From: a virus
Lineage: Duplodnaviria; Heunggongvirae; Uroviricota; Caudoviricetes
Length of the DNA: 20,446 nt
Virus record (IMG/VR): IMGVR_UViG_2529293217_000011
Strand: one strand, 5' to 3'
Numbering within the stretch: the stretch's first letter is position 1; every line of letters starts with the position of its first letter. Under the pieces are notes generated by a model that had not been told where the DNA came from, searched no databases, and worked only from the letters and a program-made list of their open reading frames with translations. Positions 529-18,325 of this stretch are shown piece after piece. The position numbers and the translations under genes are program-made.

Positions 529-605
529 TGGCGCGTTGTAGTGGAGTCGAACCACTGACCGATTGCTTAGAAGGCAATTGCTCTGTCCGGCTGAGCTAAC
601 AACGC
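529..605 (-). tRNA. tRNA-Arg (anticodon TCT)
   Basis: 77-nt cloverleaf read by hand on the - strand: 7-bp acceptor stem GCGTTGT/ACAACGC, D-arm GCTC/GAGC, anticodon stem ATTGC/GCAAT with loop CTTCTAA (anticodon TCT), T-arm AGTGG-TTCGACT-CCACT, encoded CCA. Resembles the argN/argO-type tRNAs carried downstream of Q in lambdoid/Stx phages. Confidence 0.8.
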
Positions 606-705: not shown

Positions 706-781
706 TGGTGGCCCTTGCTGGATTTGAACCAGCGACCTGGCGATTATGAGTCGCTCGCTCTCACCACTGAGCTAAAGGGCC
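706..781 (-). tRNA. tRNA with anticodon CAT, ileX/ileZ-like (tRNA-Ile2; Met cannot be excluded)
   Basis: 76-nt cloverleaf on - strand: acceptor GGCCCTT/AAGGGCC, anticodon loop CTCATAA, T-loop GGTTCAAATCC, encoded CCA. Close to the E. coli ileX sequence as I recall it. Confidence 0.8.
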
Positions 782-2361: not shown

Positions 2362-2780
2362 TTCTCAATCTCTCGATGGCGCAGTGCAGCAGATGCCAGT
2401 TGTTCAAGCTAGCACGCAAATTGTAAACCAGAATGCCAGGAAAAAACAAAACCCGCCGAAGCTGGTTGTGTGCGGTTGCGTTGAAGTCTCCTAGCCAAAG
2501 AGTAGCGGTGACCACTCCCCGCCGATAATCTTAGTTGTTTAATTTCGTAAGCTAACTAGGCTAAAAGCTCTCTGTTGTCTGCCTGTTGTACAATTAACAA
2601 AATGAACAACGAACTAGATATACCAACGCCAGAATGGTGCAACAAATCCCAAACAACACAGCAATGCAACAATAACATATGTTATTTTCCTCTCACGGGA
2701 TTCAGTCCTGAATTCTCATAAAGCTAATCTTTTTTTAAAAACATACTGTTAGATCACATGCACTTTCTTTCTTAACATCG

Positions 2781-2808
2781 TTGACTTCGCATGCGAAGCG
2801 TTTAAAAT
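2781..2808 (+). promoter_or_regulatory. Sigma70-type promoter for the GHKL ATPase operon with an embedded 14-bp perfect palindrome
   Basis: TTGACT (2781-2786), 16-bp spacer, TAAAAT (2803-2808), about 50 bp upstream of the ATG at 2861; the spacer contains the perfect palindrome CTTCGCATGCGAAG (2785-2798). Confidence 0.5.
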
Positions 2809-2860
2809 CAACAATTTGCACTTAAGGTATTTATTTTCCCAAACACATAGAGAGTAAATT

Positions 2861-4252
2861 ATGACTGAGAACACGACTCCAACAGCAGACTTTAGTCCTA
2901 GTAAAAGATTTTTTGTAAGTATGCTAACTCGAGATATCGACTTAAACGATGCCATACTTGATCTGCTTGATAACTGCGTCGATGGGGCTTTACGTACAAT
3001 AAAAGACACAAAAAAAACTTCAAAACCATATGAAGGATTTTATGCGAAACTTACGATTAATAAAGATGTCTTTATTATAGAAGACAATTGCGGAGGTATC
3101 CCTAAAAGCTTCCGAGAATATGCTTTTAAAATGGGACGACCCCATCAAAAAGAAGAAGAAAATGAAGGCACCGTTGGCGTCTATGGTATTGGTATGAAAA
3201 GAGCCATTTTTAAAATGGGTAGAGATTGCTCAATACAATCGAATAATCCCGATGGCGCATTCACTGTAGATATAACACCTGATTGGATCGATGGTGATGG
3301 TTGGAAAATACCGATGCACGAGAGTGACTATGATAACAAAAATCCAACAGGCACAACTATAGAGATAAAAAAACTCCATTCTAATGTGGCACAAAAATTT
3401 AATGAGAGCACATATCTTACTGATCTCTTTTTACAGATAAAACACTCATTGTCATTTATTATTCAAAAAGGATTTAAAATAGAATTAAATGGAGTTGTTG
3501 TTGAACATAATCCGATTAACATCATAACTGATCATTCTAAAATAGAACCATACATATATAAAGCTAAAATAGACGATGTTGATATCGATTTAGTTGTTGG
3601 CTTCTATAAAAATTTAGAAGATGACAATGATGATGTTTTAGAAAAAAGGAGTTCTGATGATGCTGGATGGACTGTCATTTGCAATGACCGCGTTGTTCTA
3701 TATTGTGATAAGACACATCTCACAGGTTGGGGCTTTGCTAATGTACCAAGGTTTCATACCCAATTTATAGCAATTTCTGGGGTTGTTCGCTTTACCAGTA
3801 AAAACCCAGAAAAATTACCAATAACAACAACGAAACGAGGTGTCGATCTTAGTTCTACATTGTACAATGATGTACGAAATAAAATGATTGAAGGGATGAT
3901 GCATTTTATTCGATTCACCAATCAGTGGAAAGGTGAGCATCTTGAAGAAGGGAAAAAATTACTTAAGTCAGCTCAGTCACATGAAGCTCAATCTTTATTT
4001 GAAATTACCCCACAATCAACTCCAGAAGATAAAAAAAATAACTGGTCCAACCCTAATAGAAACAAAAATGAGTGGCGATATACACCTAAGCTGCCTACCC
4101 CAGTAAAAAAAAGCTCTACTGTACGAATAATCTTCACCAGAGAGAAAGAAGATGTTAAAATTTTATCTAAATATTTCTTTGGACATGAAGATGCTAGCGC
4201 TTCTGATGTGGGGATGCAATGCTTTGATACGGTGATTGAAGAGGTGAAGTGA
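2861..4252 (+). CDS. GHKL-superfamily (Bergerat-fold) ATPase, MORC/MutL-like N-terminal domain, 463 aa
   Basis: N-terminal motifs read directly from the translation: motif I LDLLDNCVDGA (cf. MutL ELVENSLDA), motif II IEDNCGGIP (DNGxGI), motif III GVYGIGMKRAIF, motif IV NPTGTTIEI. About 290 C-terminal residues with no motif I recognise. Low-GC coding sequence. Confidence 0.8.
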   Translation: MTENTTPTADFSPSKRFFVSMLTRDIDLNDAILDLLDNCVDGALRTIKDTKKTSKPYEGFYAKLTINKDVFIIEDNCGGIPKSFREYAFKMGRPHQKEEENEGTVGVYGIGMKRAIFKMGRDCSIQSNNPDGAFTVDITPDWIDGDGWKIPMHESDYDNKNPTGTTIEIKKLHSNVAQKFNESTYLTDLFLQIKHSLSFIIQKGFKIELNGVVVEHNPINIITDHSKIEPYIYKAKIDDVDIDLVVGFYKNLEDDNDDVLEKRSSDDAGWTVICNDRVVLYCDKTHLTGWGFANVPRFHTQFIAISGVVRFTSKNPEKLPITTTKRGVDLSSTLYNDVRNKMIEGMMHFIRFTNQWKGEHLEEGKKLLKSAQSHEAQSLFEITPQSTPEDKKNNWSNPNRNKNEWRYTPKLPTPVKKSSTVRIIFTREKEDVKILSKYFFGHEDASASDVGMQCFDTVIEEVK

Positions 4253-5241
4253 TGTCTGGACAATACATTCCCTATCACTTAAGGCATAATAAGTCTATTG
4301 ATAGAGAGATTTTTCTCGAAAGCCTAAACCTCTTAAGCAAAAGACTAAATATTCAAGAATATACATATATAGGTTTTGGTGGTCCGATGCTTGAAGATTT
4401 TAGAATCATGCATAATCGTATCGCTCTTTCTGATATGATTTCTCTCGAAGAACAAGAGTCTACTCACATCAGACAAAAATATAATTTGCCTTATAATTGT
4501 ATTGATTGTAAGCTAATATCAGCTCATGACTTTATTCTTGATTATAGTTTTTCTAAACCATCAATAACATGGTTAGACTATGCCTCCCCGAAAAAAATAC
4601 AAACGGATCTAGATGATATACACTTACTAAGTACTAAAGTAAGCTCTTTTGATATTTTGAAGGTCACCTTCCCCATAAATCCTAGTTCTTATTACCAACG
4701 TAGAGTTGGAGAAAGTTTAGATATTTTTAAAGAAGCTTTTATTAATTCATTAAAATCATTGCTTGGGAAAAAGTATCTTGATTTTAATCTTCAGATATCA
4801 AATGCAGATCTTTCAGATCGTAAGATTAAAGCTCTTTTAATACGAATTATTACAAACGCTTTTAGATCAGCAATAGAACGTGGTCTTTCAGGACGTAAGG
4901 ATAAGATTCAGTATTACCCATTATCCTTAAATCAATATAATGATGGCAGTCATACCATGTTGACAATATCAGGTTTTTTCTCCTCAGAACAAGAATATAT
5001 AGAGTTATCTAAGGCATGCGACCTTTCTAACTGGCAATTTTATTCAACAAATTGGGAAGACGTGCAAGAAATAGCAATACCAACACTAACAATTAAAGAA
5101 AAGATAAATTTAGATAGTAAACTGCCTGATAAAGAAGCATATCAGGCAGCCGCTGAAGAGTTCTCTTTAAACGAAAATGAACGGGATAACTATTATAAAT
5201 ACTATAGGTTATACCCTAACTTCCAAAGAATTATGGTTTAA
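4252..5241 (+). CDS. Hypothetical protein, about 330 aa, translationally coupled partner of the GHKL ATPase
   Basis: ATG at 4252 overlaps the TGA stop of the ATPase gene (TGATG); the ORF track starts it at GTG 4249. AT-rich like its neighbour. No catalytic motif (PD-(D/E)xK, HNH, PLD) could be assigned by eye. Confidence 0.7.
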   Translation: MSGQYIPYHLRHNKSIDREIFLESLNLLSKRLNIQEYTYIGFGGPMLEDFRIMHNRIALSDMISLEEQESTHIRQKYNLPYNCIDCKLISAHDFILDYSFSKPSITWLDYASPKKIQTDLDDIHLLSTKVSSFDILKVTFPINPSSYYQRRVGESLDIFKEAFINSLKSLLGKKYLDFNLQISNADLSDRKIKALLIRIITNAFRSAIERGLSGRKDKIQYYPLSLNQYNDGSHTMLTISGFFSSEQEYIELSKACDLSNWQFYSTNWEDVQEIAIPTLTIKEKINLDSKLPDKEAYQAAAEEFSLNENERDNYYKYYRLYPNFQRIMV

Positions 5242-6360
5242 ATATTCGGGCTGTACTCTTTTATTTAATAAATTGTACAGCCCCTTTAATATATATTCAG
5301 CAACTATTGGTGACACGCTATTTCCTATTTGTCTGAAACTATGCCATTTAGTTACATGAAAGCGAAACCAATCAGGGAAGCCTTGTAATCTAGCAGCTTC
5401 TCTTGGTGTAATCACTCTTGGATGATAAGGGTGGATCGGCCTGACGGCTTGAAAGCTTCCTTTATCTCTAGCGGTTCCCGCCCTTAAAGTCGGGCAAAAA
5501 CCATTTGGATCTAATCTTGTAGATCTTGAAATTTTATCAGTTTCCCCAAAAGATAAGGAAGCATAACGCTCTTGGACGATTTTGCTATGTAATGTTCCGG
5601 TACATCCAGATATGATATTATTTTTTAACTTAGCGATCGATTCTGTATCACCAACATTCCGAGGGATCTGCCCCCATAATTTTTCATAAAATCCCCCTTT
5701 TCGATCTTTTTTAATTGTTCGCCAACTCTCAGAGTCTGATTGCCAATTGGCATCGATAATATCTGGTAATCCATACAAAGCATCTTTTACAGTAACCGGA
5801 TCAATCATTTTAGGCATAAATACTTCATCTGAAATATCAAGCTTCAATGATTTTTTTACACCGATAAAAAAATATCTAGTTCGAATAGTTGGAGCACCAT
5901 AATCAGATGCTTTTACCTTGATGGGATCAAGAATATCATAATCACCGCTAACCAAATTAAATGCTTTATTTCTAATGCCAGAATATTTCTCTTGCATAAT
6001 ACCTGGAACATTTTCTGCCAAAAAGAATAATGGCTGTAATTCTGATACTAAACGGTAGAAATGCATGTAAAGCTGATTCCTGCTATCATCAGGATTCCCC
6101 TTGCCTATTGAACTAAATCCTTGGCACGGAGGACCGCCAATAATACCATCTATGGGCATATCGTTTTTAAAAAAACCCTTAATTATTTCTGCATTTAGTA
6201 AAGAAACATCTTCTTGGACGTGCAAACTTCTTGGAAAATTAATTGCGTGAGTATTAATAGCATGTTGATCAATTTCAACTGCCATTTTAACATCAAATCC
6301 AGCACGTGCAGCACCAAGACTTAGACCTCCAACGCCAGAAAACAAATCTATTACATTCAT
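5209..6360 (-). CDS. DNA (cytosine-5)-methyltransferase, 383 aa
   Basis: Canonical C5-MTase motifs: motif I DLFSGVGG, motif IV GGPPCQGFS (catalytic PCQ), ENV, C-terminal motif X QIGNSVSP. The 3' end overlaps the convergent partner gene by 33 bp (5209-5241). Confidence 0.9.
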   Translation of the reverse strand: MNVIDLFSGVGGLSLGAARAGFDVKMAVEIDQHAINTHAINFPRSLHVQEDVSLLNAEIIKGFFKNDMPIDGIIGGPPCQGFSSIGKGNPDDSRNQLYMHFYRLVSELQPLFFLAENVPGIMQEKYSGIRNKAFNLVSGDYDILDPIKVKASDYGAPTIRTRYFFIGVKKSLKLDISDEVFMPKMIDPVTVKDALYGLPDIIDANWQSDSESWRTIKKDRKGGFYEKLWGQIPRNVGDTESIAKLKNNIISGCTGTLHSKIVQERYASLSFGETDKISRSTRLDPNGFCPTLRAGTARDKGSFQAVRPIHPYHPRVITPREAARLQGFPDWFRFHVTKWHSFRQIGNSVSPIVAEYILKGLYNLLNKRVQPEYLNHNSLEVRV

Positions 6361-6392
6361 ATAGTTGCAACGTCTCTTATTAGTTTCTATGT

Positions 6393-6401
6393 ATTATAAC
6401 A
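6393..6401 (-). promoter_or_regulatory. Extended -10 element (TGtTATAAT) upstream of the methyltransferase gene
   Basis: On the - strand TGTTATAAT lies about 33 nt upstream of the MTase ATG (6360) in an AT-rich leader. Confidence 0.4.
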
Positions 6402-6791
6402 CAACTGTTCTTGATGTTTTAACCCCATAAGATAACCTCATAAAGGCTATCCCTTGAAAATACCGGATCGCATAAATTTAATCTTTCAAAACTACTTGTC
6501 TATTAATCGAGCAATTTAAGGTTGTTTTAGTCATGTCGATACCGACATAGTTAACTAAACCCATTTCATCGTCCAACAAATGGGGGTAATACACTTTGAT
6601 TTATAGTCGGGTGGGTTTTTCTCTATCTGCCTTTGGTGTTCATGCCCAAGGCAGATAGCCTCAAGCACCCGCAGCAATTCTACTTAACTATCCTTTTCCC
6701 GCAAATCGTTTTTATCCCCAGCGGCAAATCGAATACACAACCAGCGCCACCGCCATCGCAATTCCTACCGTTGTGAATGCTTCAGGCCAGG

Positions 6792-17949: not shown

Positions 17950-18099
17950 ATGAGATATGACAATGTTAAACCATGTCCATTTTGTGGTTGTCCATCAGTA
18001 ACGGTGAAAGCCATTTCAGGATATTACCGAGCGAAGTGTAACGGATGCGAATCCCGAACCGGTTATGGTGGAAGTGAAAAAGAAGCACTCGAACGATGA
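17950..18099 (+). pseudogene. ralR: ralR (lar, restriction alleviation), truncated at codon 50 by in-frame TGA; frame continues to 18144
   Basis: MRYDNVKPCPFCGCPSVTVKAISGYYRAKCNGCESRTGYGGSEKEALER then TGA (18097-18099), then in frame NKRTTGNNNGGVHV and TAA. The K-12 RalR I recall is 64 aa with TGG (Trp) at this position. Confidence 0.7.
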
Positions 18100-18136
18100 A
18101 ATAAACGAACCACTGGAAATAATAATGGAGGTGTTC

Positions 18137-18325
18137 ATGTATAAAATTACCGCCACTATTGAAAAGGAAGGTGGCACTCCTACTAACTGGACAAGATATT
18201 CAAAATCTAAACTAACGAAATCAGAATGCGAAAAAATGCTCTCAGGTAAAAAAGAAGCAGGCGTTTCCAGAGAGCAGAAAGTAAAACTGATAAATTTTAA
18301 TTGCGAGAAACTTCAGTCCTCGTGA
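18137..18325 (+). CDS. ydaC: YdaC-like protein, 62 aa as encoded (in-frame TGA, then 6 further sense codons)
   Basis: MYKITATIEKEGGTPTNWTRYSKSKLTKSECEKMLSGKKEAGVSREQKVKLINFNCEKLQSS then TGA (18323-18325), then in frame IALYSN and TAA (18344-18346). The K-12 YdaC I recall is 69 aa ending SSRIALYSN. Confidence 0.7.
   Translation: MYKITATIEKEGGTPTNWTRYSKSKLTKSECEKMLSGKKEAGVSREQKVKLINFNCEKLQSS

Follow-up and report, generated by a model that had tools for sequence, protein, structure and literature searches.

The window considered here is a 20,446-nucleotide stretch of DNA from a virus of the class Caudoviricetes (IMG/VR record IMGVR_UViG_2529293217_000011), and the gene in question is the open reading frame (ORF) 2861-4252 on its plus strand. 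The product is a GHKL-fold protein that we assign with high confidence, on structural and family grounds, to the MORC type, and its gene belongs to a three-gene cassette together with a gene of the family PF20553 and a gene for a Dcm-type cytosine methylase. An earlier sequence-only reading had placed the interest of the protein in a C-terminal 'extension' and overlooked the gene context; the main interest is the three-gene module. To the view that this module acts as a methylation-linked, restriction-modification-like system of defence or superinfection exclusion, working with no recognisable nuclease, we would give a probability of roughly one half. The parts of the cassette are as follows.

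2861..3430, plus strand: GHKL (Bergerat-fold) nucleotide-binding domain, residues 1-190 (motifs I-IV, alignment, Pfam and model)
3431..3856, plus strand: S5-fold transducer domain, residues about 191-332 (structure comparison and signature motif)
3857..4252, plus strand: family-specific, mostly helical, basic C-terminal tail, residues 333-463 and the stop codon (model and alignment)
4252-5241, plus strand: PF20553 (Methyltransf_35) gene with a product of 329 amino acids (Pfam match end to end, E 2e-89)
5209-6360, minus strand: Dcm-type C5-cytosine DNA methyltransferase of 383 amino acids (Pfam DNA_methylase, E 2.6e-61; PADLOC MTase_II)

Domains and family of the GHKL protein

The ORF begins with ATG and encodes 463 amino acids, and RefSeq places a gene at identical coordinates in E. 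coli O157:H7, where it is annotated as 'ATP-binding protein' (WP_000138556.1). The frame lies far beyond chance, because the protein database holds more than 5,430 homologues and, in a scan of one genome per species, 454 genome stretches encode relatives. The 120 best-scoring homologues listed are all full length (441-495 amino acids). Identity holds at about 45% across phyla in the protein database, for example in Cyanobacteria, Nitrospirota and Gemmatimonadota, and the genome loci extend the spread to Chloroflexota, Planctomycetota, Firmicutes and one methanogen.

The four motif strings on which the sequence-only reading had based its GHKL proposal were all recovered within the first 170 residues: LDLLDNCVDGA (residues 33-43), IEDNCGGIP (73-81), GVYGIGMKRAIF (106-117) and NPTGTTIEI (161-169). 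Conservation figures for this protein refer to a 40-member alignment spanning many phyla, in which D34, N38, D41, G42, D75, G78, G79, G106, G109, G111 and G164 are invariant and T165 of motif IV is kept in at least 90% of members. The elements that mark the GHKL superfamily (acid-xxx-N-xx-D, DxGxG, GxxGxG and GT) occur in order and in register, and a further conserved segment lies near the N-terminus (P13, K15, F17-V19, M21 and T23-I26). Residues 28-132 match Pfam HATPase_c_3 with E 2.9e-9 and 37.5 bits, where the cut-off is 25. Comparison of the family profile with PDB sequences matched only MORC3 and MORC4, weakly (E 0.04-0.1), and in these alignments motifs II, III and IV fall into the same register (DNCGGI/DNGNGM, VGVYGIGMKRA/VGLYGNGFKSG and GTTIEI/GTRIII), so that the register on which the earlier proposal depended holds. 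Together with the two-domain structural matches described below, the Pfam match and the motif register uphold a GHKL protein of the MutL/MORC/Hsp90 type.

The position of the catalytic glutamate, four residues before the Mg-binding Asn38, is occupied in 40 of 40 members by Asp34, which is acidic and has a shorter side chain. The E42D form of GyrB retains reduced ATPase activity. Judged from the motifs, ATP binding by the GHKL protein is very likely. The description of the protein as an active ATPase stood only in part: activity is plausible from the GHKL motifs, but the site is non-canonical, and the rate of ATP turnover is uncertain because Asp34 replaces Glu in every member.

The domain that follows was recognised by structure. 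The predicted model (predicted local distance difference test, pLDDT, 82.5) is closest in the structure-comparison table to MORC3 (table entries 20.9 and 278), the SMCHD1 ATPase module (19.8 and 292) and MORC2 (18.7 and 307), followed by TRAP1, topoisomerase II/IV, GRP94 and MutL (14-16 and 262-318) and, at a distance, by histidine kinases (5-6 and about 100). Since structural alignments of about 280-300 residues span the GHKL domain and the domain after it, residues ~191-332 represent an S5-fold transducer; in the model the S5 region would be an integral half of the ATPase module and no appendage. Foldseek likewise retrieved the two-domain GHKL proteins Hsp90, SMCHD1, TRAP1 and MORC2, all at E ~1e-13, and ranked Hsp90 and TRAP1 level with SMCHD1 and MORC2, such that MORC/SMCHD1 are not separated by this search.

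The definition of MORC proteins includes a motif in the S5 domain, GhXhhpXXRhl (Iyer, Abhiman and Aravind 2008, PMC2292703). The GHKL protein matches it once, with GWTVICNDRVV at residues 269-279 (nucleotides 3665-3697). The pattern is found in 40 of 40 members, on family-invariant residues, and in 37 of 20,000 sequence shuffles, and by pattern match GWTVICNDRVV can be taken as the MORC S5 signature. The suggestion that an S5-like transducer would place the protein in the MORC lineage is supported by the structure comparison and the signature. By the 2008 definition the protein is of MORC type in each of the tests run, namely motifs, S5 domain, signature and closest folds.

The same 290 C-terminal residues had been described as lysine- and asparagine-rich with no assignable motif. 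The enrichment is only mild (K 9.7%, N 6.6%) and fits the low G+C content (GC) of the insert in which the gene lies, and the most conserved motifs of the family turned out to be located there: AGWTxxCNDRxV, TGWG, HxQF, LPxTTTKRG and WK. The loop LPITTTKRG (nucleotides 3815-3841; LPxTTTKRG in the family) holds the invariant K325. In MutL and GyrB a transducer lysine contacts the gamma-phosphate, and K325 is the obvious candidate for this residue. Searches of PDB sequences gave no match for the whole GHKL protein and none for an S5-only profile; because these searches were empty or weak, the transducer assignment rests on structure comparison and the signature motif.

The tail (residues 333-463) matches no Pfam family and no PDB sequence. 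It has invariant residues of its own (G345, F349, T353, W356, K357, L411, P412 and F455) and is the sole basic part of an otherwise acidic protein, with a median pI of 8.95 against 4.8 for the GHKL domain. A role in binding nucleic acid or a partner is plausible for this region.

Among characterised proteins, eukaryotic MORCs and SMCHD1 (MORC3 5IX1, MORC2 5OF9, SMCHD1 6MW7) share 14-15% sequence identity with the GHKL protein. Unlike them, it lacks a CW zinc finger, a coiled-coil insertion and a hinge and carries Asp for the catalytic Glu; it adds the family-specific basic helical tail and an obligatory partner of methyltransferase fold, which has no eukaryotic counterpart. The C-terminal dimerisation/endonuclease domain of MutL was not found in it. 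Its match to MzaB of the Mza system is 12 bits against a cut-off of 850, and the other Mza genes are absent. The DUF4263 nuclease of paraMORC3 (Shedu type I-D) was not found in the protein by Pfam, and PADLOC gave no match. The two-component-like HEF_HK/paraMORC family (PMC8011034) was also considered and rejected as a match on account of its different architecture. The GHKL protein is not MutL, Hsp90, a topoisomerase subunit, a histidine kinase or GHKL-Shedu, and it is set apart by its PF20553 partner, the Asp at the catalytic base and the basic tail.

The PF20553 partner and the Dcm methylase

The ATG of the PF20553 gene overlaps the TGA stop of the GHKL gene (TGATG), and the two genes are translationally coupled. 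Pfam names the family 'Methyltransf_35, putative O-methyltransferase'. The model of the protein (pLDDT 91.7, predicted template modelling score 0.90) has the fold of a class I methyltransferase dependent on S-adenosylmethionine (SAM). The expected SAM-binding and catalytic positions are conserved, with GFGG following beta1 and with S-I-E and W-L-D-Y closing beta2 and beta4, respectively, and an N-terminal basic helix, YHLRxNKxxDR, is invariant. Judged from the alignment together with the predicted secondary structure, K14, D109 and K137 seem to sit at the expected K-D-K positions of RrmJ-type ribose 2'-O-methyltransferases, a likeness that may explain the Pfam name. Confidence in any particular chemistry is nevertheless low. 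An exhaustive profile search of 1.84 billion representatives returned 2,242 members, as representatives at 50% identity. No fusions were seen among the 150 best-scoring members listed, which are stand-alone proteins of ~300-380 amino acids, mostly 310-345. A search with the PF20553 profile found no relative among PDB sequences.

The third component is near-identical to a protein of known crystal structure, PDB 3G7U (E 1.3e-254, residues 1-367). The PADLOC models matched by this Dcm are generic MTase_II, DruM and DrmMII only. The Dcm and PF20553 genes are convergent, and their 3' ends overlap by 33 nt.

How tightly these genes belong together was assessed in the best 80 of the 454 GHKL-encoding stretches, which come from many phyla. 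The PF20553 gene lies immediately 3' of the GHKL gene in 78 of these 80 loci, and the gap between the GHKL stop and the PF20553 gene ranges from -16 to +30 nt in all 79 loci measured (the E. coli reference counted). ORF clustering detects an adjacent Dcm in 67 of 80 loci, and tblastn does so in 69. With the E. coli reference counted in, 54 loci have the Dcm gene upstream and co-directional, 7 have it downstream and co-directional, and in 9 it is convergent. Pairwise distances of the GHKL protein correlate with those of the PF20553 protein at r = 0.92 (Mantel p = 0.001), whereas GHKL or PF20553 distances correlate with those of Dcm at r = 0.29 each. From the tight pairing and these correlations it follows that GHKL and PF20553 form an obligate co-evolving core, to which Dcm is a frequent but exchangeable third part.

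Vsr is present in 34 of the 80 loci. A gene that looks on sequence inspection like an EndoIII/HhH-GPD (Mig-like) glycosylase was seen in 7 of 80. In loci L016, L034, L035, L060, L064 and others, the Mig-like gene stands directly upstream of a second Dcm lineage, ~37% identical to the Dcm of the window, where it replaces Vsr. It appears to be an alternative partner for T:G repair.

Possible functions of the cassette

The explanation we favour starts from direct observations, namely the fold and motifs, the operon structure, the co-evolution, the mobility and the genomic contexts. We infer from them a defence role in which self and non-self DNA would be read as follows. Dcm would mark resident DNA. 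The MORC-like protein would dimerise on ATP binding and clamp DNA as eukaryotic MORCs do, probably by means of its basic tail. On unmarked DNA it would license the PF20553 partner, acting as an effector or co-sensor, and this partner would either methylate a nucleic-acid target as its substrate or use SAM as a cofactor. A coupled partner in the effector position fits the pattern of sister GHKL+S5 families with fused effectors: paraMORC3 is the validated GHKL-Shedu nuclease (PMC12137116), and other GHKL+S5 families carry TIR or HEPN domains (PMC2292703, PMC3710099).

The closest experimental precedent is VcSduA, the GHKL-Shedu (paraMORC3) protein of Vibrio cholerae, for which ATPase-dependent anti-phage activity was shown experimentally (PMC12137116). 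GHKL-Shedu has an N-terminal GHKL ATPase that, with a clamp-like middle domain, controls the effector, and in this it can be likened to the GHKL protein. Shedu, however, fuses a DUF4263 PD-(D/E)xK nuclease, whereas the GHKL protein has no nuclease domain and its putative effector is a separate protein of methyltransferase fold. With the prokaryotic MORC and paraMORC1-5 families (PMC2292703) the family shares GHKL+S5, Dcm and Vsr neighbours, and a patchy, laterally mobile distribution. A minority of MORC neighbourhoods contain methylases but no helicase (PMC2292703), and the three-gene cassette fits this class. In contrast to prokaryotic MORC operons, it has neither a superfamily 2 (SF2) helicase nor a restriction-endonuclease-fold protein. 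Its conserved PF20553 partner is unmentioned in PMC2292703, the named families of which were compared by description only. BREX and DISARM likewise combine a self-marking DNA methylase with ATPases and have no classical restriction endonuclease, but their core proteins are absent from the window and the cassette consists of three genes with a small Dcm-type methylase. Full-text searches of the literature turned up no publication about the cassette or PF20553, and GHKL and MORC are unmentioned in the Hma preprint and in a BREX survey. The cassette is predicted in outline by comparative genomics, with one component unexplained.

In the searched literature, no prokaryotic MORC proper has been characterised biochemically, and the proposed role of these proteins in restriction-modification-like systems, as well as their proposed place as ancestors of eukaryotic MORCs, rests on comparative genomics from 2008 (PMC2292703). 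The cassette is the smallest such system found, with three genes, no helicase and no nuclease. With a tractable host that includes O157:H7 and one component with a crystal structure (3G7U), it offers an experimental route to the function of bacterial MORCs. The route also opens two further questions: how a methyltransferase-fold protein can serve as partner or effector of a MORC, and whether DNA can be excluded by a methylation-guided mechanism that needs no nuclease. In Shiga-toxin-producing E. coli the cassette may further affect the susceptibility to phages and the flow of genes.

Gene neighbourhoods elsewhere were sampled through annotated look-ups, and the contexts found are those where defence systems usually occur. 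The filamentous Pf phage PfAC20 of Pseudomonas (locus L085, 280-3711) carries at its accessory end a divergent copy (32% identity) of a three-gene set, composed of a GHKL gene, a hypothetical protein gene and a cytosine methylase gene, which adjoins repressor and excisionase genes. On the Microvirga terrae plasmid pR24_2 (L086, 5001-7415), the GHKL-PF20553 pair is found without Dcm inside a DISARM system, between an MmeI-like methylase gene and drmA, with drmD just upstream. The cassette stands beside Vsr and an integrase in Leptospira and beside a ScoMcrA-like HNH gene and Abi_2 in a metagenomic island. On sequence inspection, the flanking sequence retrieved for 4 loci includes type I HsdR-like genes.

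A second, longer GHKL paralogue (563-608 amino acids) is encoded beside the cassettes of L087 (11672-13498, minus strand), L023 (9752-11443) and L031 (8499-10316). Like the GHKL protein of the cassette, it contains CNDR and W..K in its transducer and has Asp in place of the catalytic Glu. Its C-terminus bears an additional domain, and DUF4145 matches one copy below threshold. In the Serratia locus L087 an HNH_2 gene lies near this paralogue. The arrangement recalls the MORC + paraMORC1 + HNH pattern of PMC2292703, and the longer paralogue may be the paraMORC1 of Iyer et al.

Several points weigh against a methylation-linked defence. No experiment on any member of the family was found in the literature; PADLOC 2.0 has no family for the GHKL or the PF20553 protein at E <= 0.1, the PHROG families of both are of unknown function, and NCBIfam offers a functional name for neither. 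The core cassette contains no nuclease or other known toxic effector, so that of the two components of classical restriction-modification the methyltransferase was found and a cognate nuclease-family protein was not. Vsr is a repair nickase, and the Vsr and Mig-like neighbours are explicable by Dcm alone. The defence-island context was sampled and is not a statistical enrichment test. With Asp rather than Glu at the catalytic base, ATP turnover may be slow or regulatory. Finally, some 11 of the 80 loci, all cyanobacterial, hold the GHKL-PF20553 pair without an adjacent Dcm. In three of these hosts' loci (L003, L004 and L010, from Scytonema and Nostoc of the Nostocales, ~5900-8400), sequence inspection places the pair between ndhF-like and ndhD-like genes, and a fixed chromosomal site of this kind fits housekeeping better than defence.

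A bolder version of the defence reading, to which we attach only a low probability, is an epigenetic immunity free of nucleases. Dcm would mark self, and a MORC-type, ATP-gated clamp would load onto unmarked invading DNA and compact or block it, while the obligate PF20553 partner would use a new effector chemistry to methylate a nucleic-acid target (such as a ribose 2'-OH or a base) and so disable replication or expression of the invader. Such a system would foreshadow, in bacteria, the way in which DNA methylation and MORCs are linked in eukaryotes.

It is unlikely, in our estimate, that the module is instead a DNA-repair or epigenetic accessory of Dcm, which would aid T:G processing after deamination of 5-methylcytosine by recruiting or activating Vsr, as MutL does, or would, in the manner of eukaryotic MORCs, organise or silence DNA that is methylated. 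The Vsr gene adjacent in 34 of the 80 loci and the EndoIII/Mig-like glycosylase noted on sequence inspection in 7 are what such an accessory would predict, and cyanobacterial pairs at a conserved chromosomal position without Dcm also point in this direction. However, the cassette of the window has no Vsr, and neither do 46 of the 80 loci, while Dcm-Vsr pairing is common without any GHKL partner. Further, the pair occurs within DISARM beside an adenine-methylase-type gene and in phage accessory regions, its distribution is patchy and mobile, and a repair role leaves the strictly co-evolving PF20553 protein without a function.

Somewhat less probable still is a module that serves the phage, in which Dcm and PF20553, helped by the GHKL protein, would modify nucleic acids of the phage or the host and so evade the host's restriction or defence (anti-restriction or hypermodification), comparable to phage orphan methylases and T4 rIIA. 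The location in a prophage would be accounted for, as would a Dcm gene co-oriented with the early genes, the presence in lambdoid and Pf prophages and the PHROG families; phage rIIA proteins have a GHKL domain (PMC7824862). Yet non-phage chromosomal islands in many phyla make up most of the 80 loci, among 50,697 phage records only 1 contains the cassette, and GHKL-PF20553 runs against the phage early operon. As base modifiers, only methyltransferases are evident beside the cassette in the window and the profiled loci, with no oxidase, glycosyltransferase or kinase of the kind that hypermodification would require.

Abortive infection is similarly improbable. Here the GHKL protein would sense infection and activate PF20553, whose toxicity would lie in methylation of host RNA (for example at ribose 2'-O, in tRNA or rRNA), translation would stop and Dcm would have no part in marking self. 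The PF20553 protein is closest to the RNA methyltransferases Trm1, RsmD-like, RlmI/RlmO and RlmJ, and also to RlmM, TlyA and fibrillarin, and its K14, D109 and K137 at the expected RrmJ-type K-D-K positions would be in keeping with an RNA substrate, although the fourth residue of the K-D-K-E tetrad could not be placed. While the pair without Dcm in ~11 loci is as expected under abortive infection, the adjacency of Dcm in ~85% of loci is left unexplained.

A sensor histidine kinase or other signalling GHKL protein, the alternative against which the sequence-only reading had asked its assignment to be checked, is effectively excluded, as matches are sub-threshold only (HATPase_c, E 0.0042; DpiB, E 0.0033 and 16 bits against a cut-off of 656), Pfam detected no DHp/HisKA domain and the cassette holds no response-regulator gene.

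Prophage setting and variable cargo

The window is a Rac-like lambdoid prophage (CP-933R/Sp10-type) of a Shiga-toxin-producing E. coli of O157 type. Its genes include an integrase, RecE/RecT-like and cI/Cro-like genes, replication genes, a DUF1367 (ninB-like) gene and a Q-like antiterminator gene (DUF1133). Further features of the prophage and of the regions around the cassette genes are listed here.

529-605, minus strand: tRNA-Arg (UCU), downstream of the Q-like antiterminator gene
706-781, minus strand: tRNA with a CAU anticodon, called Met by ARAGORN and Ile by RefSeq, downstream of the Q-like antiterminator gene
2410..6600, no strand: low-GC insert, approximate limits (GC 0.30-0.41 against 0.45-0.55 in the flanks)
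2781..2808, plus strand: sigma-70-like promoter candidate TTGACT-16-TAAAAT, ~50 nt before the GHKL start (consensus match 10/12; weak evidence, the count of such sites in the region being no higher than in shuffles)
2850-2854, plus strand: Shine-Dalgarno-like GAGAG run upstream of the GHKL start
6393..6422, minus strand: promoter-like site TTAAAA-18-TATAAT with an extended -10 TG, upstream of the Dcm start (consensus match only)
18143-18321, minus strand: RalA small RNA, full length, antitoxin to RalR in the type I toxin-antitoxin pair of Rac prophage (225 bits), overlapping the ORF 18065-18325 on the plus strand

The RalA RNA confirms the Rac-like character of the prophage. The ralR/lar region has been linked to restriction alleviation, and tRNAs after a Q-like gene are typical of Shiga-toxin (Stx)-type and lambdoid prophages. 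The cassette occupies the low-GC insert, which is bounded by the DUF1367 (ninB-like) gene on one side and a hok/sok-like element on the other. The block of its three genes has a GC of 0.30-0.39, compared with ~0.5 in the flanks. Homology to other Rac-like prophages ends at ~2410, and the right edge is formed by ~6613-6795, which is 92-96% identical to a hok/sok-like region of Stx phages. The matching region of 933W is annotated as sokW antisense RNA and L0139; Rfam gave no family for ~6613-6795 at the gathering threshold. GHKL-PF20553 is transcribed against the early genes of the prophage, probably from its own promoter.

Positions 2400-6800 of the window (4.4 kb) recur with 100% identity in many genomes, O157:H7 and O111 among them, and out of 5,426 complete E. 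coli genomes 172 (~3%) carry the whole cassette. Other E. coli Rac-like prophages (L090, L091 and L092) carry different cargo in the same slot between the DUF1367 gene and the replication genes, namely a 689-amino-acid P-loop ATPase of the Sll1717 family and KilA-N, DUF1971, Hok/Gef and helix-turn-helix proteins. The slot is a variable cargo hotspot. A lambdoid prophage of Yersinia holds the cassette in the same slot, and in Enterobacter the cassette is found at a prophage edge.

A segment of ~99 bp just past the DUF1367 gene (2386-2484) aligns on its own, apart from the remaining query, with single-copy sites that carry no annotation in many E. coli genomes (87-90% identity). Possibly it represents a small conserved element where the insert joins the prophage.

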